42,017 nt of DNA from a bacterium (GTDB lineage: Bacteria > Bacillota > Clostridia > Christensenellales > CAG-917): contig CAVFCJ010000002.1 in assembly GCA_963620965.1 (NCBI GenBank), forward strand, positions 1 through 42,017, in the 5' to 3' direction. The notes beneath the pieces are model-generated. The model saw nothing but the letters and a program-made list of their open reading frames with translations. It was not told the origin of the DNA and did not search any database. The translations under genes were made by a program, and so were the position numbers. Below are positions 299-38,893 of this stretch, piece after piece. Every line of letters begins with the position of its first letter. The first letter of the stretch is position 1.

Positions 299-3200
299 AT
301 GAGCAGCAAAATGCAAAGACGTCTGCCTTTGGCGTTCGTCGTCGCTCTCGCAATCGTTCTTGCGAGCGTTATGACGTTCTCGATTGCAGGCATTGCAAGC
401 GCCGACAGTCAAAAGACGCCGACCAACACTCTTATGATAGGTCAATTCAGCGACATTCACTACTTCCCTGTCGACGATTGCTATCAAGACATCCAAAGTC
501 CCGACTACAAAACGAGCGACTTCTACAATTCTATGACGGGCGACACAAAACTCGTTATGGAAAGCGGTATGATCCTTAAACAACAAATCGAGCAATACAT
601 TGCCGACGCGAAGAAAGGAAAAGCACCGCAATACGTTTTCGCTTCGGGCGACCTTAGCAAAAACGGCGAAGTCACCGCTCTCGTTGACGTTGCAAACGCG
701 TTGCGTTATATGCAAAACAAGATAAGAAAAATCGAAGGTTATGAAAACTTCCAGATTTTCACCACTCCCGGCAACCACGATCTCTACAACACATCGGGCG
801 CACTGTATTCGAAAACCGATGGTTCCAAGCGTGTTTCGGACGCATTGACAACAATGCAATTTGCTCTCGTCTTTGCAGGTTTGGGATATCCTAACGCCAA
901 CCTTGACGGAAGCGACGGCGCAATCAACCTCACCGAGTATTTGCCCGCAGAATACTGGTACGGCGAATATACGACCAACTATATCCCATCAAAAAATGCA
1001 GATACGCTTAAAATTCATTACTACAACGAACACCTCGAAGCGGTCAACAATATGGACTCTTCCAAAACGACCGCCGACAAACTCAACGAATACTATCAAA
1101 TCGGCGACGGAAACAACTCCCTTTCCATGTCTTGTGAAATCAAAGTCGAAGGCTATACGGATTACGCTCTTATGGTCATCGACGCTCACGACAGAGAGTC
1201 GGCAGAAGTCGGCGCATACGTCAGAGTGAACGAAGAAGAATATAAAGTTCTCAAAAACAAAAAGCAAGCGAACGGCGCAAGTTACACTTTCTATGGCGCA
1301 ACCGAAGAAGGCGCGGTCGACACGTCAAAGACAATCGATGCCGAAAAAGCATTCGCAGCGGGCAAAATCGTGTTCCGTTCGACAGGTCTCGACCACCTAT
1401 GCGGTGGCAGACTCACCGAAGGCGTGCTCGACTGGATGCAAGAATTCTGCAAATCTCAAAATGCGTCAGCACCCACGCTCGGCGAAAAGACAATCATCAC
1501 CTGCTTCCACCAAAATGCGCTTCCGCACTGGGAAATGGAAGACGAAATCCTCAAAGACTTCACCATTTACAACTGGGAAAACACAGCAAAACGCTTGCTC
1601 GATATGGGCACTCGCTACGTATTCACCGGACATATGCACGTTTGCGACGCTATGACATACACCGACGTCGAGGGCAGGACGCTCTACGATTTCCAAACGG
1701 GTTCTTGTGTGAGCTACTATTCACCAAGAAGATACACCACAGTAGAAAGATACGATTTTGACGGTAAACTCGGCGAAACCTGTATTTCTTTAGTATACTG
1801 CCTTGATGATATCGGCGCAACACCGTTTAAGGAAGTGCCGTGCCGCAACGTATTCACCGCACCGGCATTCAACGACGAGGCTTTCCACGCCGCTTATGCA
1901 ACGTTCAAAAACACCCCCACCGAAGAAAACTGGCAGGCTGTCGTTGCAACCAACCCCGACTATCTCGCGTATATGATTAACTACGAGAACATGAATGTGC
2001 TCGGTTACAACGATTATATCAACGAGCAAATCTATTCCGTACTTCTCGACCGTATGGTCAGCCACTTCATCAATCAGGACACCATTGACGGACTTGTCGA
2101 CACGGTTATGAATATGGTCGGCGGCGACGGAATGGTTCTCGGAATCGTCCGCAGCACCTTGTTCGCAGACTTCAAAAAGAGCGATAAAGACGAGAAAAAT
2201 TTGTATAATGAATACGGCAATATGGACGCTGCCGAGAAGACCGAAGCTCTCAACGGACTTGTTCAATACATTCTCGACACCGTTCTCGAAGGCGTGACTT
2301 ACGTCCATAAAGGCACGAACTACGATTCCGCACTCGACCTTGTCAATGCGGTTGTCAACGAAGTGCTTTCTTGGGAATACGGCGACGACAGCATCGTTTC
2401 CACAGTTAATCCCACAAACAGTGGCAAAATGGGCGTTGCGGACATCGCTTCCTTCATTATGACCGCTCACACGATGGGTATGGAAATCTCTCTCGACGAA
2501 ACCGCAGAATCCATCAAAGCGATTTTCGGCGATGAACAAAAGGTCGAAGAAGGCAAAGATTACCTTTTCAAACACCCCTACAACCCCACCTATCGTTTGC
2601 GTATGGTTGCGGCAGTCAAAGATATGCACGAACAACTTATCAGCGGCAAATTCGTTGAAGATTTGCTCACGACGTTGCTCGACCCCATCTTCACCGAAGA
2701 CGGCTCGTTGCTAAAAACCATCCTCAACCATCCTTTCGATTTTGGCGACGCGGTTGACAAAGGTTACATCACCGAAGCGGCGTTCGAACATCTCAAAAAG
2801 GGTTTGGGCTCGCAACTTCCATCCCTATTGAATATGCCGATCGTCAATAATTTACTAACGAATTACGGCATTGAGGTTTCCCTCCCCGAAGGCTTTACTA
2901 TCGATGCGGAAAACTTAGTTCTCGTCAACACCATCAACGATTTGCTTCCCGCAATCAAGACTCTCGTTGCAAAACTTCTCGGCTTCTCTCTCGAAGGTCC
3001 GGACGTTATATCCATCGTTCAAAACTTCCTCGACAGTTATCTCGTCGACAGTTTCTACAAGGGACTCGGCGGCATTGCCGACGACATCGTGATTGCGTTT
3101 GCAACCGACGTCTATCCCGATATGGACGACTTTGCGCACCCCAACGCGCCTTCCTACTATCAACCCAACAAAGCGTATGAAAAGGACGGCGTGCGCCTCT

Positions 3201-4861
3201 CTTACCTCAGCACTCTCAACAAGGGCTCTGAAGTCGGCGCCGAATTCAACGCGGCAACGCAAGACAACGGTAGAGTTCCCTCCCGCGTGACTGCAAACTT
3301 CGATACGACCAACTCCACAACGTCCTACACGATTAAATTCTACACCGAAGAAAACGTGTACGGCACGTTCAAGCTCTATGACGAAAACGGAAACGTACTC
3401 GGCGATGTAAGTACTTCAAAGTCGAGCGCACTCGCCACATATGCGACGAACAAGACAGATTATCTCGACACGACGGCCTACAAAGAGTTCTCAAACGGCG
3501 TGAACGCAACCGTATTCACTCAAACCAAACCGCAATACATTCCGCTCATTGACCTCGGACTTCTCTGCCTTACGCACGGCGAGATTGTCGATGACGACGA
3601 CTGCCCCTACGTCTACGGTGATCGCGACAAGGCGGTTGCAAACAGCGTTATCTACTGGAACGTCCACACCGTCACTATCAATGGTCTCGAAGCAGGCAAA
3701 ACCTACTACTACGACATTCTCGGCAACTGCGAAACGGACGGCGAACCTCTCGAATTCTCTTTGGTCAAATACATCAAGGCGCAAGGCTACGAAGGCAACG
3801 CCCTCACGTTCACGACAGCTGTCGGCAGAGACGTTGACGCGTTCGAGTTCCTCACTATCGCGGACATTCAAGGTATGATTCAAAGTATGTACGACAACAG
3901 CCACGAGGCAGTCGACGCACTTCTTAATGACGAAAGAGTCAACACCTTCGATTTCATTCTCAACGCAGGCGATATGTGCGACAACGGCAAGAATTTCAAT
4001 CAATGGGGTATGGCGCTCGATACCTATCAAGACCTCACTCTCAACACTTCCGTGTTCTTCACGTCGGGCAACCACGAGAACAATACGGGCGCAATGGGAA
4101 GATACTTCAACTACACCGAAAAAGTCGGCGAAGAAGTCAAGGCAATAAGCGGCGAATACTATTCCTTTGATTACGCAAACGCACACTTCACCGTCCTCGA
4201 CACCAACGACGCAACAACCGAAGGTCTTGGCGCAACTCAACTCGAATGGCTCAAAAACGACCTTGCAAACACAGACGCCAAATGGAAGTTCGTGCTTATG
4301 CACAAGAGTTTGTACAGCGCAGGTTCACATGCGCTCGACGGCGAAGTCAAGGCTATGAGAAGCGAGCTCACCACTCTCTTTGCAGAGCAAGGCGTAAACG
4401 TCGTATTCGGCGGTCACGACCACACTTACACCACAACTTATCTCGTTGACAAAGACGGCAACGTCGTCGACAAGACAAACAAAGACGGTATTCGTTACAC
4501 GGGCGACGGCGTTCTCTACATCACGCTCGGCACACTCGGCACGAAGTTCTACACTTATAGAGAGAACGATATGACCACCGACAAATTCAACAAGGATGAC
4601 AGCATACTTCATACTCTCGATTCTCAAACGTTCGGCAAGGTCAAAGTCGAAGGTGACACGATCACCTTCACCGGCTACTACTTCAACAAAGCAACCGGCA
4701 AGATCGATCAAATCGGCAACAGCGCAGTACTCTCCGCAACGCCTATAAAGGACAACAAACTTATGGTTATCCTTCTTTCCACCCTCATTCCGGGTGTGGT
4801 TGTAGTCGGCGTAGGCACGGGACTCGGCATCTACTTTGTCAAGAAGAAAAAAACAAAATAA
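299..4861 (+). CDS. Secreted protein with a C-terminal membrane anchor and two calcineurin-like metallophosphoesterase domains. The second domain is purple-acid-phosphatase-like.
   Basis: 1520-aa ORF with a strong SD. N-terminal signal peptide MSSKMQRRLPLAFVVALAIVLASVMTFSIAGIASA. Two complete motif sets: SDIHY / GDLSKNGE / PGNHD / TGHMH, and ADIQG / AGDMCDNG / SGNHEN / GGHDH. The second set is preceded by an FN3-like TINGLEAGKTYYYD segment. C-terminal TM helix followed by KKKKTK. Confidence 0.85.
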   Translation: MSSKMQRRLPLAFVVALAIVLASVMTFSIAGIASADSQKTPTNTLMIGQFSDIHYFPVDDCYQDIQSPDYKTSDFYNSMTGDTKLVMESGMILKQQIEQYIADAKKGKAPQYVFASGDLSKNGEVTALVDVANALRYMQNKIRKIEGYENFQIFTTPGNHDLYNTSGALYSKTDGSKRVSDALTTMQFALVFAGLGYPNANLDGSDGAINLTEYLPAEYWYGEYTTNYIPSKNADTLKIHYYNEHLEAVNNMDSSKTTADKLNEYYQIGDGNNSLSMSCEIKVEGYTDYALMVIDAHDRESAEVGAYVRVNEEEYKVLKNKKQANGASYTFYGATEEGAVDTSKTIDAEKAFAAGKIVFRSTGLDHLCGGRLTEGVLDWMQEFCKSQNASAPTLGEKTIITCFHQNALPHWEMEDEILKDFTIYNWENTAKRLLDMGTRYVFTGHMHVCDAMTYTDVEGRTLYDFQTGSCVSYYSPRRYTTVERYDFDGKLGETCISLVYCLDDIGATPFKEVPCRNVFTAPAFNDEAFHAAYATFKNTPTEENWQAVVATNPDYLAYMINYENMNVLGYNDYINEQIYSVLLDRMVSHFINQDTIDGLVDTVMNMVGGDGMVLGIVRSTLFADFKKSDKDEKNLYNEYGNMDAAEKTEALNGLVQYILDTVLEGVTYVHKGTNYDSALDLVNAVVNEVLSWEYGDDSIVSTVNPTNSGKMGVADIASFIMTAHTMGMEISLDETAESIKAIFGDEQKVEEGKDYLFKHPYNPTYRLRMVAAVKDMHEQLISGKFVEDLLTTLLDPIFTEDGSLLKTILNHPFDFGDAVDKGYITEAAFEHLKKGLGSQLPSLLNMPIVNNLLTNYGIEVSLPEGFTIDAENLVLVNTINDLLPAIKTLVAKLLGFSLEGPDVISIVQNFLDSYLVDSFYKGLGGIADDIVIAFATDVYPDMDDFAHPNAPSYYQPNKAYEKDGVRLSYLSTLNKGSEVGAEFNAATQDNGRVPSRVTANFDTTNSTTSYTIKFYTEENVYGTFKLYDENGNVLGDVSTSKSSALATYATNKTDYLDTTAYKEFSNGVNATVFTQTKPQYIPLIDLGLLCLTHGEIVDDDDCPYVYGDRDKAVANSVIYWNVHTVTINGLEAGKTYYYDILGNCETDGEPLEFSLVKYIKAQGYEGNALTFTTAVGRDVDAFEFLTIADIQGMIQSMYDNSHEAVDALLNDERVNTFDFILNAGDMCDNGKNFNQWGMALDTYQDLTLNTSVFFTSGNHENNTGAMGRYFNYTEKVGEEVKAISGEYYSFDYANAHFTVLDTNDATTEGLGATQLEWLKNDLANTDAKWKFVLMHKSLYSAGSHALDGEVKAMRSELTTLFAEQGVNVVFGGHDHTYTTTYLVDKDGNVVDKTNKDGIRYTGDGVLYITLGTLGTKFYTYRENDMTTDKFNKDDSILHTLDSQTFGKVKVEGDTITFTGYYFNKATGKIDQIGNSAVLSATPIKDNKLMVILLSTLIPGVVVVGVGTGLGIYFVKKKKTK

Positions 4862-4872
4862 GTGCTTAACTC

Positions 4873-4906
4873 AAAAAAGCGCGCAACTTCACGTTGCGCG
4901 CTTTTT
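4873..4906. terminator. Intrinsic terminator after the 1520-aa gene, potentially bidirectional.
   Basis: 10-bp GC-rich stem AGCGCGCAAC / GTTGCGCGCT with loop TTCAC. Flanked by an A-run upstream and TTTTT downstream. Confidence 0.8.
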
Positions 4907-4976
4907 AATTAATAATGAATAATTAATAATGAATAATTTTGGGTGGGCTCTGCCCACACCCGATTAAATATAAATC
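4907..4976. repeat. Short dispersed repeat cluster (family 1): AT-rich tandem unit TAATAATGAATAAT x2, a GGGTGGGC-TCT-GCCCACACCC hairpin and a GATTAAATATAAATC motif.
   Basis: Its reverse complement resembles 14048-14100 (AATATAAATC + GGGTGTGGG hairpin + AATTATTAATTATTAAT). The AT-rich part also resembles 16311-16344. Confidence 0.6.
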
Positions 4977-4988
4977 TGCAAGATTCGA

Positions 4989-5040
4989 TGCGCTAAATCG
5001 ATGCATAACGCGAAAGCACCCCCATGAATTTCACCCCTAA
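4989..5040. repeat. Left-half fragment (copy A') of the nested-hairpin element family.
   Basis: TGCGCTAAATCGATGCATAACGCGAAAGCACCCC matches the left arm of copy B (19802-19835). It then degenerates (GAATTTCACCCCTAATT versus GAATGGCAACCCTAATTT) and has no right arm. Confidence 0.6.
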
Positions 5041-5174
5041 TTAAAAAAACCGCGCTATTTGGATGAAGAACGCGAAAGGCACGGCTTGAATCAAAACCCA
5101 GTGTACATAGACGTACACGATTTTGAGGCAAGCCGTGCCTGACAAAGTTATTCGCCAAATAGCACGGTTTTTTA
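5041..5174. repeat. Nested-hairpin element, copy A (variant apex). It probably also acts as terminator for the dnaK-operon tail.
   Basis: Outer arms TTAAAAAAACCGCGCTATTTGG / CCAAATAGCACGGTTTTTTA. Mid stem GGCACGGCTTG / CAAGCCGTGCC. Apical hairpin GTGTAC-N6-GTACAC. The last 3 nt form the TAA stop of the HIT gene. Confidence 0.7.
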
Positions 5175-5513
5175 GCACATCGTATCAGATAATTTTCCAC
5201 CGCCAAGTACATGAATATGCAAATGCCCCACCGACTGGCAACCGTCCTCACCCTTGTTGGATACGAGACGGAAACCGTTTTGAAGTCCCAATTCGTCGGT
5301 AAGCGTAGAGAGTTTTTTGAGGCATTTTGCGAGGGTTTGCGCTTGAGAGTCCGTCATCTCGATTATGTTTGCGTAATGCTCTTTTGGGATAAGCAAAAGA
5401 TGTATGGGGGCTTGCGGATTCAAGTCCTTTATGATAATCATATCGTCGTCTTCGTAGACTTTTGTAGACGGAATATCGCCTTTAACGATTTTGCAGAAAA
5501 TGCAGTTGTCCAT
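5172..5513 (-). CDS. HIT-family (histidine triad) nucleotide hydrolase/transferase.
   Basis: 113-aa ORF with the histidine triad HLHIHVLGG near the C-terminus and N-terminal CIFCKI. It is the last gene of the dnaK/mtaB cluster. Confidence 0.85.
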   Translation of the reverse strand: MDNCIFCKIVKGDIPSTKVYEDDDMIIIKDLNPQAPIHLLLIPKEHYANIIEMTDSQAQTLAKCLKKLSTLTDELGLQNGFRLVSNKGEDGCQSVGHLHIHVLGGGKLSDTMC

Positions 5514-13820: not shown

Positions 13821-13896
13821 GCTAGTGTGGCTCAGCAGGTAGAGCAGCTGATTCGTAATCAGCAGGTCGCCGGTCCGAATCCGGCCACTAGCTCCA
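13821..13896 (+). tRNA. tRNA-Thr, anticodon CGU, with encoded CCA.
   Basis: Cloverleaf folded by hand. Acceptor GCTAGTG/CACTAGC, D stem GCTC/GAGC, anticodon stem GCTGA/TCAGC with loop TTCGTAA, T stem GCCGG/CCGGC with loop TCCGAAT, discriminator T and CCA. Confidence 0.93.
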
Positions 13897-13900
13897 AAAA

Positions 13901-13933
13901 AGAGTGATATATCTCGTATATAGCACTCTTTTT
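13901..13933 (+). terminator. Intrinsic terminator after tRNA-Thr.
   Basis: Stem AGAGTG..CACTCT followed by TTTTT. Confidence 0.7.
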
Positions 13934-13978
13934 CGTCTAATGACAGTTTTTAACCACGAGTACTTGCCGATTGGTTTT

Positions 13979-14833: not shown

Positions 14834-14840
14834 TTTTCAC

Positions 14841-14872
14841 AAAAAACGAGCCTCAAAATAGGCTCGTTTTTC
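14841..14872. terminator. Bidirectional intrinsic terminator between the convergent genes at 14210 and 14909.
   Basis: AAAAAA-ACGAGCC-TCAAAATA-GGCTCGT-TTTTT. Confidence 0.8.
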
Positions 14873-14908
14873 ATTGTTACAATGCGATAAAACGTTTTTT
14901 AAGTGCGA

Positions 14909-18101: not shown

Positions 18102-18488
18102 TCAGCCTCTGATTTGCGGCGGAATCGTGATAGTCACCCCTTGCGGCGCAAAGAGGAAGATGTTTTTCGTGATTTGCTGAATACTGCCGTCAAGTGCGTA
18201 AATCGCGCCGCTCATAAAGTCGAGGATTCTGTACACCGACTGTTGATTGAGTGTGGAAAAATCAACTATCACTTGTTCTCTCATTTTGAGATGGTCGATG
18301 AGCAGTTGCACGTCCTTGTAGGTTCTCGGCGAGTAGATAACAACACCGCCGCTTTGACCGACGGACGGTTGCGTGTAACTCGGCACTTGACCGACGGGCG
18401 CGGGCTGACTTTGGCGAGAGAAGATTCTTCCGCCTCTTTGCATATCCGCGCGTTGCGATTGTTCGTTTCTGAAATACCTTTCGTCCAT
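18102..18488 (-). CDS. sepF: Cell division protein SepF.
   Basis: 128 aa with a conserved C-terminal domain (YSPRTYKDVQLLIDHLKMREQVIVDF...LDFMSGAIYALDGSIQQI). Lies downstream of yggS/ylmE as in other Firmicutes. Confidence 0.88.
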   Translation of the reverse strand: MDERYFRNEQSQRADMQRGGRIFSRQSQPAPVGQVPSYTQPSVGQSGGVVIYSPRTYKDVQLLIDHLKMREQVIVDFSTLNQQSVYRILDFMSGAIYALDGSIQQITKNIFLFAPQGVTITIPPQIRG

Positions 18489-18516
18489 ATGTTTACCTGT
18501 ATTATGCCTATGGCAT

Positions 18517-18602
18517 AGTTATATTGCACTGCGTGCAGTTATATTGTGTCTGCGACACGATGATATTCTCGCTTTGCGAGAGTTATATTGCGGCGCTGCC
18601 GC
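18517..18602. repeat. Tandem array of four ~21-nt units. Each unit is a conserved AT-rich linker plus a different short GC-rich hairpin.
   Basis: Units on the + strand: AGTTATATT-GCAC.TGC.GTGC, AGTTATATT-GTGTC.TGC.GACAC, GATGATATT-CTCGC.TTT.GCGAG and AGTTATATT-GCGGC.GCT.GCCGC. Confidence 0.7.
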
Positions 18603-18632: not shown

Positions 18633-18768
18633 TAACCCCACGCAATGCGTAATTCTTCAATTATTCCGCAACTGCGCCATGGGCGCAATCGGGTGTGGGT
18701 GTCCCACCCTTTCGTCATTCAGAGCGACAGCGTGGGAATCAAGCGTAGCGTAATTCTTCAATTATTCG
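18633..18768. repeat. Family-1 repeat cluster in the yggS-sepF intercistronic region.
   Basis: 20-nt direct repeat GCGTAATTCTTCAATTATTC at 18647-18666 and 18748-18767. Hairpin TGCGCC-ATG-GGCGCA (18673-18687). GGGTGTGGGTGTCCCACCC hairpin (18691-18709). TTTCGTCATTCAGAGCGACAGCGTGGGAATCAAGCGTAGCG, homologous to 14000-14047. Confidence 0.65.
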
Positions 18769-18775
18769 GCACTTG

Positions 18776-19444
18776 CTAGGCAAGCGCAATCCTTTCCCCA
18801 AACAGCACTCTGCCAAGTCGTATCATATTCGAGCCGTGTTCGAGTGCGATTTTGTAGTCGTTCGACATTCCCGCCGACAAATATTCGACGTTTACGCCGT
18901 CTTGCTTTATGCTCTTTGCGTCCTCGTATATCCGTTGCAACTTGTCGTAAAGACGGGCAAGTTCCGTCTTGTCTTCGAGGTTGGGAAGCACGCTCATAAC
19001 GCCTTTTATCTCGATGTGCGGATAATCTTTCATACTTTGTATGAAATCGAGTGTTTCTTCGGGTCGTACGCCGCCTTTTGTTATCTCTGCGCCCATATTT
19101 ATCTCAACAAGGCATTTTTGAATCACGTCGTGTTTAACGGCTTGTTTTTCAATCTCTTTCGCCAGTTCCACCCTATCGAGCGAGTGTATCAAGTCCACTT
19201 TTCCGACGCCATACTTGACTTTGTTGGTTTGAAGTTGACCGATGATATGCCAGACGTACTTTTCGTCATAGTGTTCTACAAACTCTTGCACTCGGTTTTC
19301 GCCCAACACAAAATCGGGCGCAACTGACATAAACTTGTCTATCGTGTCTTTCGACTGCATTTTGCATGCCGCCACGAGGTGTACGTTTCTATCGTACTTT
19401 GCCACCTCGTCCCGCACTTTTTGAAGGTTGTCGAGTAGTATCAT
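18776..19444 (-). CDS. yggS: YggS/YlmE-family pyridoxal-phosphate homeostasis protein.
   Basis: 222 aa with WHIIGQLQTNKVK and LSAGMSNDY motifs. Lies next to sepF. Confidence 0.88.
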   Translation of the reverse strand: MILLDNLQKVRDEVAKYDRNVHLVAACKMQSKDTIDKFMSVAPDFVLGENRVQEFVEHYDEKYVWHIIGQLQTNKVKYGVGKVDLIHSLDRVELAKEIEKQAVKHDVIQKCLVEINMGAEITKGGVRPEETLDFIQSMKDYPHIEIKGVMSVLPNLEDKTELARLYDKLQRIYEDAKSIKQDGVNVEYLSAGMSNDYKIALEHGSNMIRLGRVLFGERIALA

Positions 19445-19477
19445 TTTCCGTTTTTAACTTTTACTTTTTAATGAAAG

Positions 19478-19768
19478 CTTCCCCCTTCCTCACGTGTTTC
19501 CCCTACCGCCGTTCCCCCTCTGCATACTTTGAGGGAACCCACGGCGTCCGCTCCGCGTGGGGCAACACTGACGCGATTGACTTCGTAGCAATCGCTAGTT
19601 CGTTGCAAGCAACGAACGGCAGACGGGCTGTTGGCAATACAAATCGGCTGAAAGCCGTGCCACTGCGCTTTGTGTGCCAGCTACGCACCCAAACGGCACA
19701 GTCGGACGGTACTAATCGTCAAGCTCGGCGCTCCCTTTTCTCGCCGCCTTGCGGCTCGTGTTCCGTCT
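19478..19768. ncRNA. Candidate structured RNA or unclassified repeat, copy 1 of a ~290-nt element. Strand undetermined.
   Basis: Near-identical to 36957-37246. Dense local hairpins: CCCACG..CGTGGG, GCGATTG-N9-CAATCGC, GTTCGTTGC-AA-GCAACGAAC, CGGCT-GAA-AGCCG and TGTGCC-N16-GGCACA. One compensatory pair change distinguishes the copies. No convincing ORF and no match to any RNA family I can recall. Confidence 0.45.
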
Positions 19769-19794
19769 CTGTATAGGCAGAGTCTACGCTTCAA

Positions 19795-19923
19795 TTAAAA
19801 CTGCGCTAAATCGATGCATAACGCGAAAGCACCCCTTGAATGGCAACCCTAATTTACTAAGCGTAAATGAGTTGACAGGCAAGGGGTGCTGACAAAGTTA
19901 GGCGCGATTTAGCGCAGTTTTAA
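19795..19923. repeat. Nested-hairpin element, copy B (archetype). Probable terminator of the ABC transporter gene.
   Basis: Outer stem TTAAAACTGCGCTAAATCG / CGATTTAGCGCAGTTTTAA (perfect, 19 bp). Mid stem GCACCCCTTG / CAAGGGGTGC. Apex GAATGGCAACCCTA-ATTTAC-TAAGC-GTAAAT-GAGTTGACA. The ABC stop codon (19920-19922) lies in the terminal TTTTAA. Confidence 0.75.
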
Positions 19924-22865
19924 TCTACGCGTAGGGCGTCAACCACATTCTTGCGCGACGCCATAATCGCCGGAACTATACCCGAAATAATCGTTAGCGC
20001 CAAGCTCAAACATACGAGGATGAAGGCATGGAGTGGATGGAAATGGAGGAGAGATCCAATTCCGGTGACCGCTTTGATGATGAGCGACAGAATGGGGCAA
20101 AGGAGATATGTGACGACAATGCCGATAAGTCCGCTGCACAGACCGATGATGGAAGTTTCGGCAATAAAGACATTGCGAATATCTTTTTTGCGTGCGCCGA
20201 TTGCGCGGAGAATGCCGATTTCACGAGTACGTTCGACGACCGAGTTGGACGTGATGACTCCGATCATAACTGTGGATACGACAAGGGATATCGCAGCAAC
20301 GGCTATGAGCATTGCGGACACGAGGTCGAGCGTGCTTTGCATATTGACGAGGAACATTTCGGACACGTCAAAATAGCCGAGAGTGCCCTTGCCGGACTTT
20401 TGCCAAGCGGAAATATAGTTGCCCGAATTGGTCTTTTGATCGCTGTCATTGGGGAAAACAGTGACGTAATACGGACTCTTATCTGCACCGATTGCGCGCA
20501 TAAAATACGTGTATTTAAGTGCGGGCGTGTTGGCAACCGTTGCGAGCATCATATTGCCGTCGTTTATCTCTTTGTTGTCCAAACGAACGCCGAAAACCGT
20601 CTTTTTCCTGTCGCCGCTATTTGTTTTGTCCAGTTCCAACTGGCGCTGTGTAAAAGTGCTGTTCGCCGCGCTTTCGAGAGTGCTTTCGGCAAGCGAGGGC
20701 AGATAGCAAAGCGACGAACCGACGTATGTGTGTTCGGCTTCCTTCTTTGCACGGATAACGCCAACGATTGTGATTTCGTCGGAAGATTCGTCGTACATTT
20801 GTTGAAGTTTTTGTTGAGATTCTTCCGAATCGTCGTACCCCCACATCATCTCTTTGCTTTGGTCTTGAAGCATATCGCTCAAACCGCCGCTGCCTTCACC
20901 GCTCGATTCGCCGCCTTCGCCGAGTCCGAGATTTTCATATGTTTCGGTGCTTTCGTCGTAGGTGTAATAGGAATCGTTGTCGATGAGTTTGAACGACTGC
21001 CCCAAGAAGTATTCGTACGATACTTTTTCGGTGTCTATTTCGATGGGCTTGCCGTCCTCGCCGCGTTTGAGCGTGCCGTATTCGTCCTTCTCGTAAAGTT
21101 CGATTCCGAATGCGGAAAGTACCGATTTGCTAATGGTGTTGTCAGTGCCTACGCACAACAGAATTTCGTTTTTGTTTTGCGGGAATCTGCTTCCCTCGCC
21201 GATGAAATCGTAGGAACGCATCATAACGCCCTCGTCCGCAACGAGTTCTTGCCAATATTTTGCCTGCAAGCCGTTTTCGCCCAAAACCGTCGTAGCGCAC
21301 GCCGTCGTGGTGAGCGGTTGAGGCTGTTGCGAAGCGTCCTTGTACACAATGTTACCGTCCTTGTCGTATGTCTTTCTGACAAGGTTGTATCGCAAGCCAT
21401 AAGATATGCTCATCGCCGTGTAATAATCCTTTGGCATCGCTTTCATATAGTCGGCAAATTCTTCCGTCAAATCGTTCTTTTGAACGCCCGTCATAAAGGA
21501 TTTAACGACGGAATTTATCAACATCATCATCGCCGCAGTGCTGCTCGAACTGCTCGAAACCTTGATGTCGTCCGAATCGGGATAGAGGCTCGGATCTTCG
21601 GACGGCTTGTCCATCATGCTCGTCATCAAATCCATAATGGCGTTGTTGGATACGTTGTATTGATAAACGCCGAGAGGAACGCCCGAAAGCATTTCGGTTT
21701 CCATCTTGGCAAGATAGATGTTAAATCCGTTGTAAATTGACAAAACGAGCGCAAGACCTATAATGCCGATTGCGCCTGCAAATGACGTGAGCAACGTGCG
21801 GCGTTTTTTGGACACGAGGTTTTTAAGACTCAATCCGAACGCCATACCCGCGCTCATAGACGTGGGCTTGAACGCCTTGTCTTTTTTCTTTTTCTTCTTT
21901 GACAAACTGTTGAGTCCGAGTTTGTCGAACAAGGCTTTCGTCTCCTCGCCGACGTTTCTCATAGCACGTTTGCGCTTGCGGTTGGACGTCTTTTTCTTTT
22001 TGCCAGACTCCTCTTCGTTTTGCTCGTTTTGAGCGTTTATCTCCACGTTTTGTGATGTTAAACCGCTTGTTCGGTCCACTTCGACTTCTATTACGTCCGC
22101 CGTAGAATTTTCAAATGCGCTCGCTTCCGACTCGATTGTCAACGATTCTTCTGCGTCTTCGGATTGCTCGCAAAACTCGGTTTCGGGGTCGTACGGATTG
22201 GTGTCCTCGACAAGTTGACCGTCCTTAAAACGGCAAATACGCGTTGCGTACTGATAGGCGAGTTCGGCGTTGTGGGTAACCATAATGACAAGACGATTTT
22301 TTGAAATCTCTTGCAAAATGTCCATGACCTGCACGCTCAATTCGCTGTCAAGCGCACCTGTCGGCTCGTCGGCAAGAATGATTTTGGGGTCGTTGACAAT
22401 GGCTCTTGCGATTGCGACACGTTGCATTTGTCCGCCACTGAGTTGGTTGGGGCGTTTGTCGATTTGCTCGTGCATATTGACTTTGTGAAGCGCGGCAACC
22501 GCCTTTGCCCTGCGTGTTTTCTTCTTTTCGCCGACAAGGCTCAAAGCAAGTTCGACGTTTTCAAGCACGGTGAGATGCGGAATAAGATTGTAACTTTGAA
22601 ACACGAACCCTATGGTTGCGTTGCGATATGCGTCCCAATGCTCGTCGTCAAATTTCGCCGTAGAAACGCCGCCTATGACCAAGTCGCCCGACGTGTATCT
22701 GTCCAGCCCGCCGATGATGTTGAGCATTGTCGTTTTTCCGCAGCCGCTCGGACCGAGAATCGCCACGAATTCGCTTTCGCGGAAATTGAGCGACACTTTT
22801 CTCAAAGCGTGTACGGTCGTTGTGGCAGTGGGATAATCTTTTACTACGTCTTTAAGCTGAAGCAT
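19920..22865 (-). CDS. Fused ABC transporter with an N-terminal ATPase and a C-terminal FtsX/MacB-type permease carrying a large extracytoplasmic domain.
   Basis: 981 aa. Walker [10 protein letters not shown], signature LSGGQMQRV, Walker [14 protein letters not shown]-rich linker. The first TM is followed by ~470 aa of extracytoplasmic region, then an FtsX-like 3-TM bundle ([16 protein letters not shown]...). Confidence 0.88.
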
Positions 22866-23930: not shown

Positions 23931-23979
23931 GCAAAAATCGTCGCTGAGGCAACGGCAATCGTGGGCGATTGACTTTGCC

Positions 23980-24050
23980 GCAACGCTGTTTGAGCAATGT
24001 GCAACCCTTATTTACTGATAGTAAATGAGTTGACAGACGATGGGCGTTGC
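23980..24050. repeat. Core-only copy (C1) of the nested-hairpin element.
   Basis: Mid stem GCAACGC / GCGTTGC encloses GCAACCCTT-ATTTAC-TGATA-GTAAAT-GAGTTGACA. The outer arms are absent. Confidence 0.55.
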
Positions 24051-24082
24051 TGCAGTTATTTGTTTTATTTGAACTATGGAAA

Positions 24083-24201
24083 GTCGCGCCAAATAGATGA
24101 AGAACGAGAAAGAGCCACCCGAACCGCAACCCTAATTTACTTATAGTAAATGAGTTGTCGGATGGGTGGCTCTGACAAAGTAATTCGCTATTTGGCACGG
24201 C
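24083..24201. repeat. Nested-hairpin element, copy C2. It overlaps the 3' end of the M28 peptidase gene.
   Basis: Outer arms GTCGCGCCAAATAG / CTATTTGGCACGGC. Mid stem GAGCCACCC / GGGTGGCTC. Apex CGCAACCCTA-ATTTAC-TTATA-GTAAAT-GAGTTG. The right arm encodes the last codons (R-A-K, part of S) and the TAG stop of the gene. Confidence 0.7.
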
Positions 24202-25510
24202 TTTCGTCGATTTTGGAAATGACGCGCAACACCACGTCCAACCCCAATCCCACCGTGTCTGGCGAGAAACGTTCGGGTACGTCGCGATAGGTGTGATAAT
24301 AATCGCTCATGACGGGATTTTGTGCAGCGAAAGTGATGGATTTTACGCCCGCTTTTTGGAAAGGCGTGGAGTCGCAACCGCCGACGGGGTTTGCGATGTC
24401 GCCGGGTTTTTGGATGCCCGCTTCTCTCATTGACTCTTTGAACATACGTTCCAAATCCTTGTCGAAATGGGGGCAAAGCCAGCTGTCGCCGTGAATGACT
24501 TCAAAATGATCTGCGTCGGCAATGGAGTCAATGTTGATGTGGTAGGCATTGTCGAGCATACCGTCGTCTTTGTGTTTGCGGGTGAAAGCAATGGAGCCGC
24601 GAAGACCTGATTCTTCCGCACCGATGTTGCAGTCAACGATACGGCAATTTTTTGGCATTTTGTCGGGATTTTCCTTGTAATACTTCACTACTTGATACGC
24701 AATTGAAACGCCGGTTGCGTTGTCCATTGCGCCAGGAGAAGCGATTGCTTCCGTCTTTTCGTTGTACATCGTGAGCAAGAACGCACATACGATGACGACG
24801 GGCGACGAATACAAAATGATTTGCGAGAGGATGTCATATGCTTTTGCGACGTTCCTAAACGTTTCAACGCCCAAAGAATCCACAGAGCCATATTGCAAAA
24901 TCATAATGAGAATGAGTGCGGCTGCGCTTAATATCGTCACGACGCCGACCGCAATCGCGCCGAGTCCCAAGCGAAGCACGACGCCGACAAAGCCGAGCTT
25001 GTGCTGTGATGCGCTGAGTTTGAGCGTCCAACTGGTGTCGGTGTGACCCGAAAGGAAGATCGTATAATCGTATTTTCCGTCTTCGGGAAGAAGTTCCGCA
25101 TAAGTGTTGTGCGACACTTTGTGCTTGAAGCACCAGTCGAAGCATGTGTTGTACTTGAACACGCTGACAACGAGCCAAATCCAAGTGAACGCCATATACA
25201 TCGTGCATACGAAGTGGGTTGCAAGACCGGCATATGTCGAGATATGAGCAAGCATTGTCGCAATGACAGTGATAATACAACCGATTATGCCTGCCCAACC
25301 TGCGTAAGGCAGACCGCCTATGGACGCGTGGGGCGCAAAGACAAAACTCTCGGTGACGGGGTTTAGTCCGATTTCTTTGAGTTTGTCCGACATATACTCG
25401 TGGTACTTCTTCTCGTTGTTCGAGCCGGGAAGGCGCGGGCCTATCTCGTTTGCGGCGTATTCGACCATTTCATAGGCTTCATCGCCGTACTTTTTGAGTT
25501 CGTCTCTCAT
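24188..25510 (-). CDS. M28-family metallopeptidase with transmembrane helices intercalated in the catalytic domain.
   Basis: 440 aa. M28 ligand motifs in order: SGHTDTS, GAMDNATG, GAEESGLRGS, YHTYRD. Hydrophobic helices lie before the H-x-D motif (two) and between it and the bridging Asp (at least two). Confidence 0.75.
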   Translation of the reverse strand: MRDELKKYGDEAYEMVEYAANEIGPRLPGSNNEKKYHEYMSDKLKEIGLNPVTESFVFAPHASIGGLPYAGWAGIIGCIITVIATMLAHISTYAGLATHFVCTMYMAFTWIWLVVSVFKYNTCFDWCFKHKVSHNTYAELLPEDGKYDYTIFLSGHTDTSWTLKLSASQHKLGFVGVVLRLGLGAIAVGVVTILSAAALILIMILQYGSVDSLGVETFRNVAKAYDILSQIILYSSPVVIVCAFLLTMYNEKTEAIASPGAMDNATGVSIAYQVVKYYKENPDKMPKNCRIVDCNIGAEESGLRGSIAFTRKHKDDGMLDNAYHINIDSIADADHFEVIHGDSWLCPHFDKDLERMFKESMREAGIQKPGDIANPVGGCDSTPFQKAGVKSITFAAQNPVMSDYYHTYRDVPERFSPDTVGLGLDVVLRVISKIDESRAK

Positions 25511-33661: not shown

Positions 33662-33792
33662 TTAAAAACTTCGATATTTAGATGCATAACAAGGAAGCGC
33701 CCCTTGACTGGCAACCCTAATTTACTATCCGTAAATGAGTTGACAGTCAAGGGGTGCTAACAAAGTTAGGCGCTATTTAGCGCGGTTTTTTA
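33662..33792. repeat. Nested-hairpin element, copy D.
   Basis: Right arm CTATTTAGCGCGGTTTTTTA; the left arm TTAAAAACTTCGATATTTAG is partly degenerate. Mid stem GCGCCCCTTGAC / GTCAAGGGGTGC (one G-T pair). Apex TGGCAACCCTA-ATTTAC-TATCC-GTAAAT-GAGTTGACA. Its last 3 nt are the stop codon of the 41-aa ORF. Confidence 0.7.
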
Positions 33793-33915
33793 CTTGCAAT
33801 CGGCCATCTCTTTTCCGCTGTTTTTAGCGCGAGATTTCGTTGTTTTGCTCGTTTTCGGTTCGTCGCAATGGCATGCGCCGCTGCGTTTGGATTGTTTGTT
33901 TTCGGATTTTGCCAT
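33790..33915 (-). CDS. Candidate small protein (41 aa), Lys/Ser-rich with a CHC...C arrangement. Not in the supplied ORF track because it is under 60 aa.
   Basis: Hand translation: MAKSENKQSKRSGACHCDEPKTSKTTKSRAKNSGKEMADCK. AGGAG lies 7 nt upstream of the ATG at 33915. A nested-hairpin element starts at the stop codon, as for four larger genes. Confidence 0.45.
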   Translation of the reverse strand: MAKSENKQSKRSGACHCDEPKTSKTTKSRAKNSGKEMADCK

Positions 33916-36936: not shown

Positions 36937-36956
36937 AAAACAATCAAAAATTAAAA

Positions 36957-37246
36957 CTTCCCCCTTCCTCACGTGTTTCCCCTACCGCCGTTCCCCCTCT
37001 GCATTCTTTGAGGGAACCCACGGCGTCCGCTCCGCGTGGGGCAACACTGACGCGATTGACTTCGTAGCAATCGCTAGTTCGTTGCACGCAACGAACGGCA
37101 GACGGGCTGTTGGCAATACAAATCGGCTGAAAGCCGTGCCACTGCGCTTTGTGCGCCAGCTACGCACCCAAACGGCGCAGTCGCTTGTACTGTCCGTCAA
37201 GCTCGGCGCTCCCTTTTCTCGCCGCCCTGCGGCTCGTGTTCCGTCT
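36957..37246. ncRNA. Candidate structured RNA or unclassified repeat, copy 2 of the ~290-nt element.
   Basis: Aligns end to end with 19478-19768. Five single-base differences, two of which form a compensatory pair, plus one replaced 15/16-nt patch. It starts 20 nt after the U32 stop codon with no terminator between them. Confidence 0.45.
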
Positions 37247-37289: not shown

Positions 37290-37418
37290 TTAAAACCGCG
37301 ATATTGAGATGAAGAACAAGAAAGAGACATCCGAATGGCAACCCTAATTTACATAGCGTAAATGAGTTGACAAGCGGATGCCTCTGACACAGTTATTCGC
37401 TCAATAGCGCGGTTTTAA
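37290..37418. repeat. Nested-hairpin element, copy E. Probable terminator of the 41934..37415 operon.
   Basis: Outer arms TTAAAACCGCGATATTGAG / CTCAATAGCGCGGTTTTAA. Mid stem GAGACATCCG / CGGATGCCTC (one A-C). Apex GAATGGCAACCCTA-ATTTAC-ATAGC-GTAAAT-GAGTTGACA. The stop codon at 37415-37417 lies inside the terminal TTTTAA. Confidence 0.75.
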
Positions 37419-38893
37419 TGGTTGGCGACGTAGTCGTTAGCCCCCGTAAAGTCCGCATAATAATTCTTCGCTTCGCACTCGAATGTGCTGTCCGATTTGA
37501 GAGCGATGACGGTCGTGCCGCGTTGAGACTTTTCTTTGTAGATGCCGGCATAGGCGAGATAGTCGATGGACATACCGTAGGTGAGGCGAATAGAGCGGGA
37601 CGCGCCGGCCGGCGTATAGTTTACGGAAAAGTTGTTGTAGTGGTCGTGTCCGCAGAAAACGCCTTGCATACCGTGCGTAAGACCCGTTTCAAAAAGCGTG
37701 TCGGTGCTGCTTCCGCAGAATACGCCGTAGGTGCGAACGCCGTTCTTCTTCTTGTCGGATTCGCCCATAGTTCCGTAAATAAACTCGGTTGTGCCTTTAG
37801 CGGAAGCGAGAATCGTGCCGCGAGTCAATTCATCTTTGGATTTGCCCGATTCGATGACGTTTGCCCAAGCGTCGCGGTACTCAGCGAGCGGAATGTGGAA
37901 GAACACGAGGTTGTTGACTTCAACGTTGTTGTTTGCGGCTTTGAGTTTGTCCATCTCGGTTGCGTACCAGTCGATTTGGCATTGATGGATGTTGTCGTAC
38001 TTCCACGCCATACCGAAATAGTCGCCGTCGGTGTAACTGTGGCTGTCGAATGTGACGAGTGCTTGGTTGATGGGACTTACGGAGCCGCTCGGATTCTTGA
38101 CGACGATGACGTCGTTGCCGAAGCCTCTAGAAGTTTTGCTTATCTCGTCTTTCTCGTCACAGAAGCCTGCTCTGAAAAGGCAATATTTGAAACCTGCGTT
38201 CGCATAGTAGTCGCAGATCTGGTCGCGTCCGTAAAGGCTGTACATCTCGGTGTCGTGGTTGCCGAACGCAAACGTCCAGTACACGCCGAGTTTTTCCATC
38301 ATCGTCGCAAAGATTTTGGTTGCGTTGAGGTTGTTGAACGTGCCTGCTTGGAAGGGAACGGGATACGCAATATCGCCCGTCACGACCACAAGGTCGGGTT
38401 GAGATTGACGAATCATCGTTGCAACCGCACTCATAGCCCAGTTGTCTTTCGTGCCGGAAAACGCACCGCCACCGATATGTACGTCGGTGAATTGCAACAC
38501 TTTGAAATCTCTGTCCGCCTCTTTTTCAAACGTCCAATATCCAAGATCGTCGTCAAAAGTCGGCACAAGTTGCGCATGCTCGGTGTATTCGACCTTTTCA
38601 AAACTCGAAGCAAGCGAAAGGTGCGCGTTGGTATTGACGGCCGAGGCAATTGCGCAACCGCTGAAAAAAATGACGATTGCAAGCACCACGCAGCCCGTGA
38701 TAATCAAGGCTTTCGCGGTTTTTCTTTTCTTTTGTTCGGGCGTGAGTTGTTTTTTCTCTTTCTTGCCCTTCTTTACCTTTTTACCATCAAAGTCTTTGAG
38801 TATACCATCGTTTTCGTCGTTTTCTTCAAGACCGTTTATGTCTTGTTGCGATTCCTCTTGCGGAATATCCGCGTTTTTGATTTCGTCGCTCAT
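37415..38893 (-). CDS. Membrane-anchored calcineurin-like metallophosphoesterase.
   Basis: 492 aa with AGGAGG SD. Acidic/basic N-terminal tail, then one TM (ALIITGCVVLAIVIFFSGCAIA). Motifs TDVHIG, TGDIAYP, FGNHDTE, FFHIPL and CGHDHYN. Confidence 0.85.
   Translation of the reverse strand: MSDEIKNADIPQEESQQDINGLEENDENDGILKDFDGKKVKKGKKEKKQLTPEQKKRKTAKALIITGCVVLAIVIFFSGCAIASAVNTNAHLSLASSFEKVEYTEHAQLVPTFDDDLGYWTFEKEADRDFKVLQFTDVHIGGGAFSGTKDNWAMSAVATMIRQSQPDLVVVTGDIAYPVPFQAGTFNNLNATKIFATMMEKLGVYWTFAFGNHDTEMYSLYGRDQICDYYANAGFKYCLFRAGFCDEKDEISKTSRGFGNDVIVVKNPSGSVSPINQALVTFDSHSYTDGDYFGMAWKYDNIHQCQIDWYATEMDKLKAANNNVEVNNLVFFHIPLAEYRDAWANVIESGKSKDELTRGTILASAKGTTEFIYGTMGESDKKKNGVRTYGVFCGSSTDTLFETGLTHGMQGVFCGHDHYNNFSVNYTPAGASRSIRLTYGMSIDYLAYAGIYKEKSQRGTTVIALKSDSTFECEAKNYYADFTGANDYVANH

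Follow-up and report, generated by a model that had tools for sequence, protein, structure and literature searches.

A clade-restricted family of nested hairpin repeats at the stop codons of genes in uncultured gut Clostridia

About one gene in six carries a repeat that follows three rules: it begins at the stop codon of the gene, it turns one face to that gene, and it stands in the place of the ordinary terminator. The repeat, about 129 nt in length, was analysed in the window, by which we mean the whole 42,017-nt stretch of DNA under study, and in related genomes and metagenome contigs. It is a real, new and clade-restricted repeat family. Our best reading, to which we give a probability of roughly 0.5, is that it represents a copy-and-paste, terminator-type module of gene ends that is read by a putative protein. 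The interpretation offered in an initial annotation of the window is supported in part; the anchoring to stop codons, the near-absolute orientation and the purifying selection at orthologous sites had gone unseen in it.

Seven occurrences had been claimed in the window, and all of them were recovered where the initial annotation had placed them: the five full copies served to build a covariance model, which retrieves them together with the core of C1, and nhmmer adds A'. In the following list the strand is the sense of the abutting gene (the earlier consensus reads on the plus strand), and bits are covariance-model scores.

5044-5173, minus strand: copy A, full; 130.4 bits
19795-19923, minus strand: copy B, full; 145 bits; fold -67.3 kcal/mol
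24078-24206, minus strand: copy C2, full; 131.9 bits
33663-33791, minus strand: copy D, full; 124.8 bits
37290-37418, minus strand: copy E, full; 141.4 bits; fold -51.4 kcal/mol on the plus strand and -56.4 kcal/mol on the minus strand
4987-5042, minus strand: A', what is left of a B-type copy (its left half in plus-strand reading); found by nhmmer, model positions 6-60
23970-24064, minus strand: C1, decayed second unit of a tandem pair; covariance-model core 23996-24037, 22.7 bits

The five full copies share one orientation because each abuts the stop codon of a minus-strand gene. Within the window the model scores 124.8-145 bits on the plus strand against 41-66 bits on the minus strand, and the family is therefore strongly asymmetric. 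Copy A (fold -69.3 kcal/mol, z -12, with an alternative apex GTGTAC..GTACAC) shares 2 nt with the stop codon, 5172-5174, of a HIT-family gene at 5172-5513(-) in which the HIT motif is present. The first 4 nt of copy B contain the stop codon (19920-19922) of an ABC/FtsX gene, 19920-22865(-), with the Pfam domains ABC_tran and FtsX, and the first 4 nt of copy E contain that (37415-37417) of a metallophosphatase gene, 37415-38893(-), with the Pfam domain Metallophos. The M28 peptidase gene at 24188-25510(-) (Pfam Peptidase_M28; stop codon 24188-24190) extends 19 nt into the outer stem of C2, and the orthologous copies of C2 in the related loci L040, L034 and L028 covary with this coding arm. Copy D shares 2 nt with the stop codon, 33790-33792, of a 41-aa, Cys-rich, basic ORF at 33790-33915(-). 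This ORF (MAKSENKQSKRSGACHCDEPK...DCK) was unlisted and came to light only through the expectation that element D lies against a stop codon; in L004 the orthologous element adjoins a homologue of 43 aa. The two incomplete occurrences are best described in terms other than those first used. A', annotated as a left-half fragment, is indeed a remnant, and derives from a B-type copy: 34 nt are identical to the left arm of B (repeat family D4). It lies distal to copy A in the gene sense and was scored as a decayed distal stack member. C1 had been regarded as a core-only copy; it is instead a decayed full copy, with an intact right half and a degenerate left half (nhmmer 24000-24064, model positions 48-112; fold -29.9 kcal/mol, z -4).

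Each of the five full copies folds as a single nested hairpin of about 49 pairs, at -51 to -69 kcal/mol (z -7.5 to -12), and none of 200 shuffles folds as stably. The window copies alone show changes on both sides in 24 of the 49 predicted pairs; among 115 distinct copies from the window and its relatives this number rises to 43 of 49. In the same 115 copies, standard pairs make up 94.8% of cells, a share that falls to 70.9% on shuffling and to 35-38% when the partners are slid, and 1261 cells are changed on both sides, against 351 +/- 19 in shuffles. On each of five covariation measures, none of 500 shuffles matches the real alignment. Thus, the dispersed, nested hairpin with covarying stems proposed in the initial annotation stands, and the covariation, whose absence among further copies was to speak against it, extends well beyond the window. 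Middle stems of 68 different kinds occur among 117 copies, and outer GC segments of 87 kinds. The variable arms, described at first as unrelated, do differ between copies; they are, however, old and stable subtype signatures and not fast-evolving sequence, since the B-type stem is unchanged in orthologues at 77-83% protein identity. The outer TTAAAACCGCGC end, which had been taken as fixed, is only loosely conserved.

Invariant irregularities alternate with these freely covarying helices. On the plus strand of the window a bulged A and a T.G pair in GATG are invariant (the bulged A is present in 109 of 115 copies), as is a purine-rich 5 x 6 internal loop, AAGAA / GACAAA, which lies next to AAC/GTT; a CCTA / GA loop and the TAC-N5-GTA tip are further invariants. 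Three helices contain one purine-purine mismatch each (G.A, A.G or, at one site, G.T), and a pyrimidine-pyrimidine mismatch never occurs in its stead. The GATGMAKAAC / GTTAKKC helix of the initial annotation has to be amended accordingly, with one purine-purine mismatch, the bulged A and the T.G pair always kept. The majority of copies have the box pair GAAGAAC / GTTATTC, and a minority subtype, about 14 copies out of 117, has GCATAAC / GTTAGGC. Over its full length the element forms an imperfect palindrome that ends in TAAAAC...GTTTTA, so that terminal inverted repeats are present. A conserved, irregular rod amid covarying helices implies a putative reader protein. The plus strand also holds a mini-ORF of 12 codons (ATG AAG AAC ... 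TGG CAA CCC TAA), which we regard as a coincidence: it is without a ribosome-binding site, its length depends on the subtype (copy A stops after 8 codons) and it runs through variable stems. The K-turn, hammerhead, hairpin-ribozyme and ssoA CS-6 motifs and the TTGACA promoter box were also considered, and none fits the fold.

An apex-pattern scan, with one genome per species, found the element in at least 112 stretches from at least about 16 metagenome-assembled genomes (MAGs) of uncultured gut Clostridia. A covariance-model census of the first 100 of these at least 112 loci gave 114 distinct full-length copies, and an nhmmer census gave 226 places over all the sequence examined (window, related loci and metagenome contigs); further copies number at least about 180-230, in at least about 16 gut Clostridia MAGs plus metagenome contigs. 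The host MAGs are labelled Firmicutes CAG:238, Christensenella sp. UBA..., Clostridiales UMGS... and similar, and the nearest among the matches listed is a bin named 'Firmicutes bacterium CAG:238', syntenic with the window at 87-91% identity. Several other loci (L007, L015, L040, L013, L027, L084 and others) come from bins titled Phascolarctobacterium succinatutens, Butyrivibrio crossotus or Anaeroplasmataceae. Two of them, L040 and L027, share synteny with the window at 83-88% identity, and as carriers of the element the bins with these titles are probably mislabelled. The element was absent from viral contigs, GenBank phages and PLSDB plasmids, and three of its core 14-mers were not found in the full-text literature searched. 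A scan of the window with Rfam 15 at the gathering threshold returned tRNA only; at E <= 10, positions 19300-20000 gave only a chance match to mir-666 (17 bits), which falls outside the element in a neighbouring repeat, q300 (see below). The initial annotation's failure to place the element in a named family agrees with the result of these Rfam 15 scans.

The position of the element was assessed with genes called by a codon-usage model trained on the loci themselves. Among the 226 places, 149 abut a stop codon, 51 are distal members of stacks and 26 are others, most of which adjoin small genes that the gene caller missed. The stop codon mostly falls within the opening 1-7 nt of the element; a smaller number of ORFs run on through 14-26 nt of the outer stem. 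Of 109 first copies, 87 overlap the stop codon, against 6 of 56 simple terminators (p = 3e-18), which in the same loci start at a median of about 20 nt after the stop. TAA is the stop codon of 82% of the carrier genes and of 58% of other genes (p = 1e-5). At 148 of 150 element-bearing gene ends the plus-strand consensus is antisense to the gene. By GC skew, 76% of carrier genes lie on the leading strand, as do 75% of all genes; the orientation therefore follows the gene and not the replication fork, which rules out an orientation set by replication of the IS200/IS605 kind. Shrinkage of the spacer by deletion bias was rejected as the cause of the contact with the stop codon because the distal side is not shrunk, the convergent gene lying 19-1249 nt away. 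Extension of the palindrome into the coding sequence was likewise rejected, since complementarity past the ends of the model is at the chance level, except for 9-12 nt at five or six loci.

The end of the ABC/FtsX gene, where copy B lies, was compared across 41 metagenome contigs. In orthologues down to about 63% identity the element begins exactly at the stop codon. Two orthologues of 60-61% identity are without it, and a 52%-identical orthologue is followed by a 198-nt variant (L150, 2229-2426) that has extra internal hairpins and keeps the loop motifs and the TAC-N5-GTA tip. With or without the element the protein always ends in ALRVD/E; therefore, the element was added at the natural stop and left the protein untouched. 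Between the window and orthologous sites the B-type unit is 98.4% and 95.3% identical, whereas at the same sites third codon positions are 55-66% and the downstream flank 45-58% identical. Thus, the element is under purifying selection across species. An XRE-type helix-turn-helix gene was seen directly after a truncated element in L107 (about 3010-3300), and in L148, after 1501, an XRE-type gene directly follows the stop codon of the ABC gene, where the element is missing; this gene may be an inserted island that uses the site.

Turnover was observed at the same gene ends. ABC/FtsX strains 92-96% identical in protein carry another subtype, swapped right up to TAAA...TTTA, and close strains differ at a single site, where no fewer than three subtypes, tandem pairs in the orders X-Y and Y-X, and truncated units occur. 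At the end of the PSP1 gene a full element is found in L045, a hairpin remnant in L004 and no element in the window, and L109 and L134 provide a further case of presence and absence. There are 48 tandem stacks of 2-5 units, and in 31 of 42 cases the unit next to the stop codon is better preserved than the rest (p = 0.003); near-identical B-type copies stand at no fewer than five unrelated genes. Such sharing of near-identical subtypes between unrelated genes, together with unit exchange and stacking, shows that units are copied to stop codons, whether by an enzyme or through recombination that selection filters.

Of 125 gene ends with an element array, 2 have a canonical terminator behind it, in contrast to 54 of 509 without an element (p = 6e-4), which suggests that the element occupies the niche of the terminator. 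As element-bearing ends are without an ordinary terminator, termination or 3'-end protection, by a terminator or a 3'-end hairpin, is its most likely role. The anatomy of the outer stem agrees with this, being an A-tract, a GC-rich stem and a T-tract as in the local bidirectional terminators, and a stable, GC-rich hairpin, with the folding energies given above, stands directly 3' of the gene. The initial annotation had proposed an 'ornate bidirectional terminator' among three roles; for these reasons it is the best fit of the three, and among the points against it is the T-tract. In the element this tract consists of 4-5 T followed by A and is partly paired with the A-tract, which makes it far weaker than in the genomes' own terminators, with their 6-9 T. 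In intrinsic terminators the U-tract comprises about 7-9 residues after the stem, and a plain terminator needs neither contact with the stop codon nor a fixed face. In addition, L109 keeps an old terminator after the element. In favour of the terminator niche, a truncated allele in L135 has gained a T7 tract behind the middle stem. Ordinary bidirectional terminators (A-tract, GC stem, T-tract) occur in the window at 4873-4907, 12 nt past a stop codon, at 14840-14873, 7 nt past a stop codon, and at 13896-13934, directly after a tRNA; the element model matches them weakly and through the outer stem alone. Insertion into the loop of an existing terminator was dismissed as a general rule, as the B-type copies at unrelated genes have a common outer stem, AAAACTGCGC, and as the old terminator of L109 survives downstream of the element.

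In our preferred reading, the element would delimit genes at their 3' ends in a clade of uncultured Clostridia from the human gut. Its outer stem, usually with TAA among the first bases, would serve as the terminator or 3'-end hairpin of the gene, and the inner rod would be the folded strand that a putative protein recognises. New units would join at the stop codon, older ones would be shifted downstream and decay, and subtypes would be exchanged at a given site.

Several other repeats lie close to the element. The q300 family, of about 300 nt, is present in the window at 19470-19794 and 36949-37246, on the plus strand, with 95-97% identity, and at 72 places in related loci, including deletion variants of roughly 200 nt. 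It occurs within 120 nt of the element in 37 copies; 35 of these are just past its distal end, and 27 of the 35 have the strand seen in the window. The repeat is non-coding, folds with z -3.0 on the plus and -1.4 on the minus strand, and gave no match in Rfam; it could be a MITE or a small RNA gene. Inside q300 there is a 26-nt hairpin module, GACGCGATTGACTTCGTAGCAATCGC (window 19570-19595 and 37049-37074; also L057, L136 and L097), which is inserted in some of the hairpin elements as well, where it replaces or interrupts the GATGAAGAAC arm, and which appears to move on its own. Another recurring sequence, TTCTCTACAAGAGTG..., is found directly after or inside the distal arm in L122, L130 and L134 (about 2360 onwards) and in the flanks of L115, L023, L034 and L052; it leads into a q300-like segment in the orientation opposite to the arrangement in the window. 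The window also has two pairs of direct repeats of 28-29 nt, at 18500-18591 and 18647-18776 (families D12 and D19) and with distances of 64 and 101 nt, which lie in the spacer between the genes 18102-18488(-) and 18776-19444(-).

Several observations bear on which strand folds. Simple terminators have an excess of G.U pairs in the sense of the gene (19 vs 8), and the elements lean the opposite way: counts of G.T against A.C favour the plus strand by 106 to 62, in copies that are clustered and model-selected, and by only 195 to 147 (p = 0.01) in copies chosen and aligned by sequence alone. The plus strand folds better by 2.2 kcal/mol on average and is the more stable one in 80 of 113 copies, and the conserved mismatches are all purine-purine on this strand, i.e., antisense to the gene. 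This lean, the stability and the mismatches keep alive a reading based on folded DNA or on antisense RNA. If the folded species were an RNA antisense to the gene, the element could be a terminator or insulator that halts transcription arriving from downstream exactly where the coding region ends; such transcription could include that of q300, which on this strand often directly precedes the element. The strand asymmetries would then be explained, as would the finding that 35 of the 37 adjacent q300 copies lie on that side (27 with the same strand), and the complement of TAAAA would supply a U-tract. However, the strand tests are weak and partly an effect of copy selection, no conserved promoter was seen upstream, and of the 86 informative cases 52 have a co-directional neighbour there, so that no convergent transcript is expected; we consider this explanation very unlikely. 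A regulator linked to translation, in which a stable hairpin with the stop codon in its base would hinder the terminating ribosome and so tune protein output or couple translation to mRNA decay, is also quite unlikely. [quoted passage not shown] An effect of the element on the terminating ribosome is possible on these grounds. Against such a regulator, the carriers are unrelated or housekeeping genes (HIT, ABC transporter, peptidase, phosphatase, small basic protein), the hairpin on the sense strand is the weaker one on average, and both the inner loops and the fixed face are left unexplained.

The initial annotation had also suggested a mobile, MITE-like palindrome. Copy-and-paste behaviour is upheld by the subtypes shared between unrelated genes, the exchange of units and the 48 stacks; the MITE-like part is not, as no target-site duplication, parent IS or transposase came to light. 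We found no consistent direct target-site repeat: the flanks are complementary for 1-3 nt and, beyond that, at the chance level. A duplication of the TA within TAA fits B, E, L084, L109 and L034, and fails at about half of 12 junctions inspected by eye. Neither a parent IS nor a transposase was present in the window or beside the exceptional copies, and no gene flanked by inverted copies of the element was found. An ordinary IS-derived MITE with a TA or TTAA target, accumulating passively downstream of genes, is already disfavoured and, in our view, highly improbable. The ends TAAAA...TTTTA, the B and E sites and the clustering with other repeats would suit it, but passive build-up predicts a broad range of distances to the stop codon, and a spike at overlap is observed; only about half of the 12 junctions have a purine behind the distal TA, and the base there instead complements the one before the stop codon, the outermost column being paired in 73 of 114 copies; and neither the 99% orientation nor the conservation across species would be expected. 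More can be said for a selfish, site-specific mobile hairpin without a function for the host, whose folded DNA strand would be recognised by a recombinase or HUH nuclease encoded elsewhere. Insertion would then recur at gene ends, and the proximal copy would seem conserved because it is always young. This would be in line with stacks whose distal units decay, with whole units exchanged up to TAAA...TTTA at one site, with near-identical B-type copies at no fewer than five unrelated genes, and with bulges and mismatches conserved on one strand, to which the G.T counts also lean. However, TAAA is everywhere in AT-rich spacers, and no feature at the DNA level is known by which an in-frame stop codon is marked; unlike IS200/IS605, the element is oriented by the gene and not by the replication fork; and no transposase or integrase was seen beside any copy inspected, nor any direct-repeat duplication. 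Moreover, the same subtype occupies the same site in lineages at 77-100% protein identity, and one subtype per site, despite 68 middle stems, favours inheritance and selection over re-insertion. On balance, the selfish hairpin is rather unlikely. A more far-reaching proposal is unlikely too: the hairpin, mobile or recombining, would home to stop codons with an orientation set by the gene and without dependence on replication, or else it would be the recognition signal of a dedicated, clade-specific 3'-end factor. Homing of this kind would be coupled to gene expression or to the folded DNA strand, through an attC-like or otherwise new structure-specific system; a signal for a 3'-end factor would follow a logic comparable to that of the histone mRNA stem-loop.

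Dispersed repeats such as REP, ERIC, Correia and SPRITE are usually seen as loosely placed intergenic passengers. The gene-end module described here contrasts with that picture, as a repeat with strict rules that is under purifying selection across species and is yet exchanged and stacked. It raises the questions of how a repeat finds the end of an ORF and of which protein reads the conserved purine-rich loops, both of which are testable in abundant, uncultured gut bacteria. It is also of use in annotation, since it marks true gene ends: it exposed the 41-aa gene, and it flags MAG bins that are probably mislabelled.

Among known systems, the attC sites of integrons share several features with the element. 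These are imperfect palindromes of about 60-140 nt that lie directly after an ORF with a fixed face toward it; an unpaired spacer of 5/6 nt is bordered by conserved AAC...GTT boxes, some bases are extrahelical, the centre varies and covaries, structure is conserved above sequence, and new units join one end of the stack. The element resembles them, and we claim resemblance only, in its position after an ORF, the AAC/GTT boxes at the unpaired 5 x 6 loop, the bulged A and the stacking. On the other hand, its carriers are syntenic core genes 4-15 kb apart and not cassettes, with no integrase or cassette array in the window, and it has about 20 further pairs outside the boxes. The common pair GAAGAAC / GTTATTC misfits RYYYAAC / GTTRRRY, to which the minority pair GCATAAC / GTTAGGC comes close, and the 5/6 asymmetry, being antisense to the gene, is the mirror image of that of the attC bottom strand. 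To our knowledge, integrons are not known in the host phylum. The ordinary bidirectional terminators of the same genomes likewise consist of an A-tract, a GC-rich stem and a T-tract; they differ in having 7-14 pairs, a position about 20 nt after the stop codon, long T-tracts and unrelated sequences.

The closest known analogue is the terminator-like repeat SPRITE of pneumococci, followed by elements of the REP and ERIC types. We know of no relation in sequence between SPRITE and the element. SPRITE is a dispersed repeat of a Firmicute; it has AAAA/TTTT termini, and its long stem-loop consists of an 18-bp duplex with a long U-rich tail behind it. It is enriched near the 3' ends of coding sequences and shows no clear target duplication; its roughly 30 copies are on the leading strand in 63% of cases, which mirrors the coding bias, and co-option as a terminator has been suggested (PMC3049150). 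The element also has AAAA/TTTT termini and sits at the 3' ends of coding sequences. Nevertheless, its nested rod of 49 pairs with conserved internal loops sets it apart from SPRITE as described, and it mostly overlaps the stop codon with a face that is fixed in 99% of cases, whereas no anchoring to stop codons is reported for SPRITE (PMC3049150). As for REPs, they are described as 20-40 nt long with a GTAG or CGTC head (PMC3733652). Such a head is absent from the consensus of the element, and no RAYT gene was seen in the loci examined; at 129 nt, the element differs from REPs and REPINs in length, architecture and host lineage alike. REPs and BIMEs are extragenic palindromes at the 3' ends of genes, often in tandem, that stabilise mRNA or attenuate transcription, and REPINs are hairpins mobilised in trans. 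The ERIC, Correia, RUP and BOX repeats, of 100-170 nt, form long hairpins when transcribed, affect mRNA in an orientation-dependent manner, and nest and cluster with other repeats (PMC3049150, PMC10969869). They have defined terminal inverted repeats with TA or other duplications and are found in both orientations at varied distances from genes, and their copies are near-identical, whereas those of the element covary. Thus, the element differs from both SPRITE and the REP and ERIC types in its anchoring to the stop codon, its fixed face, its deep covariation and its constraint across species.
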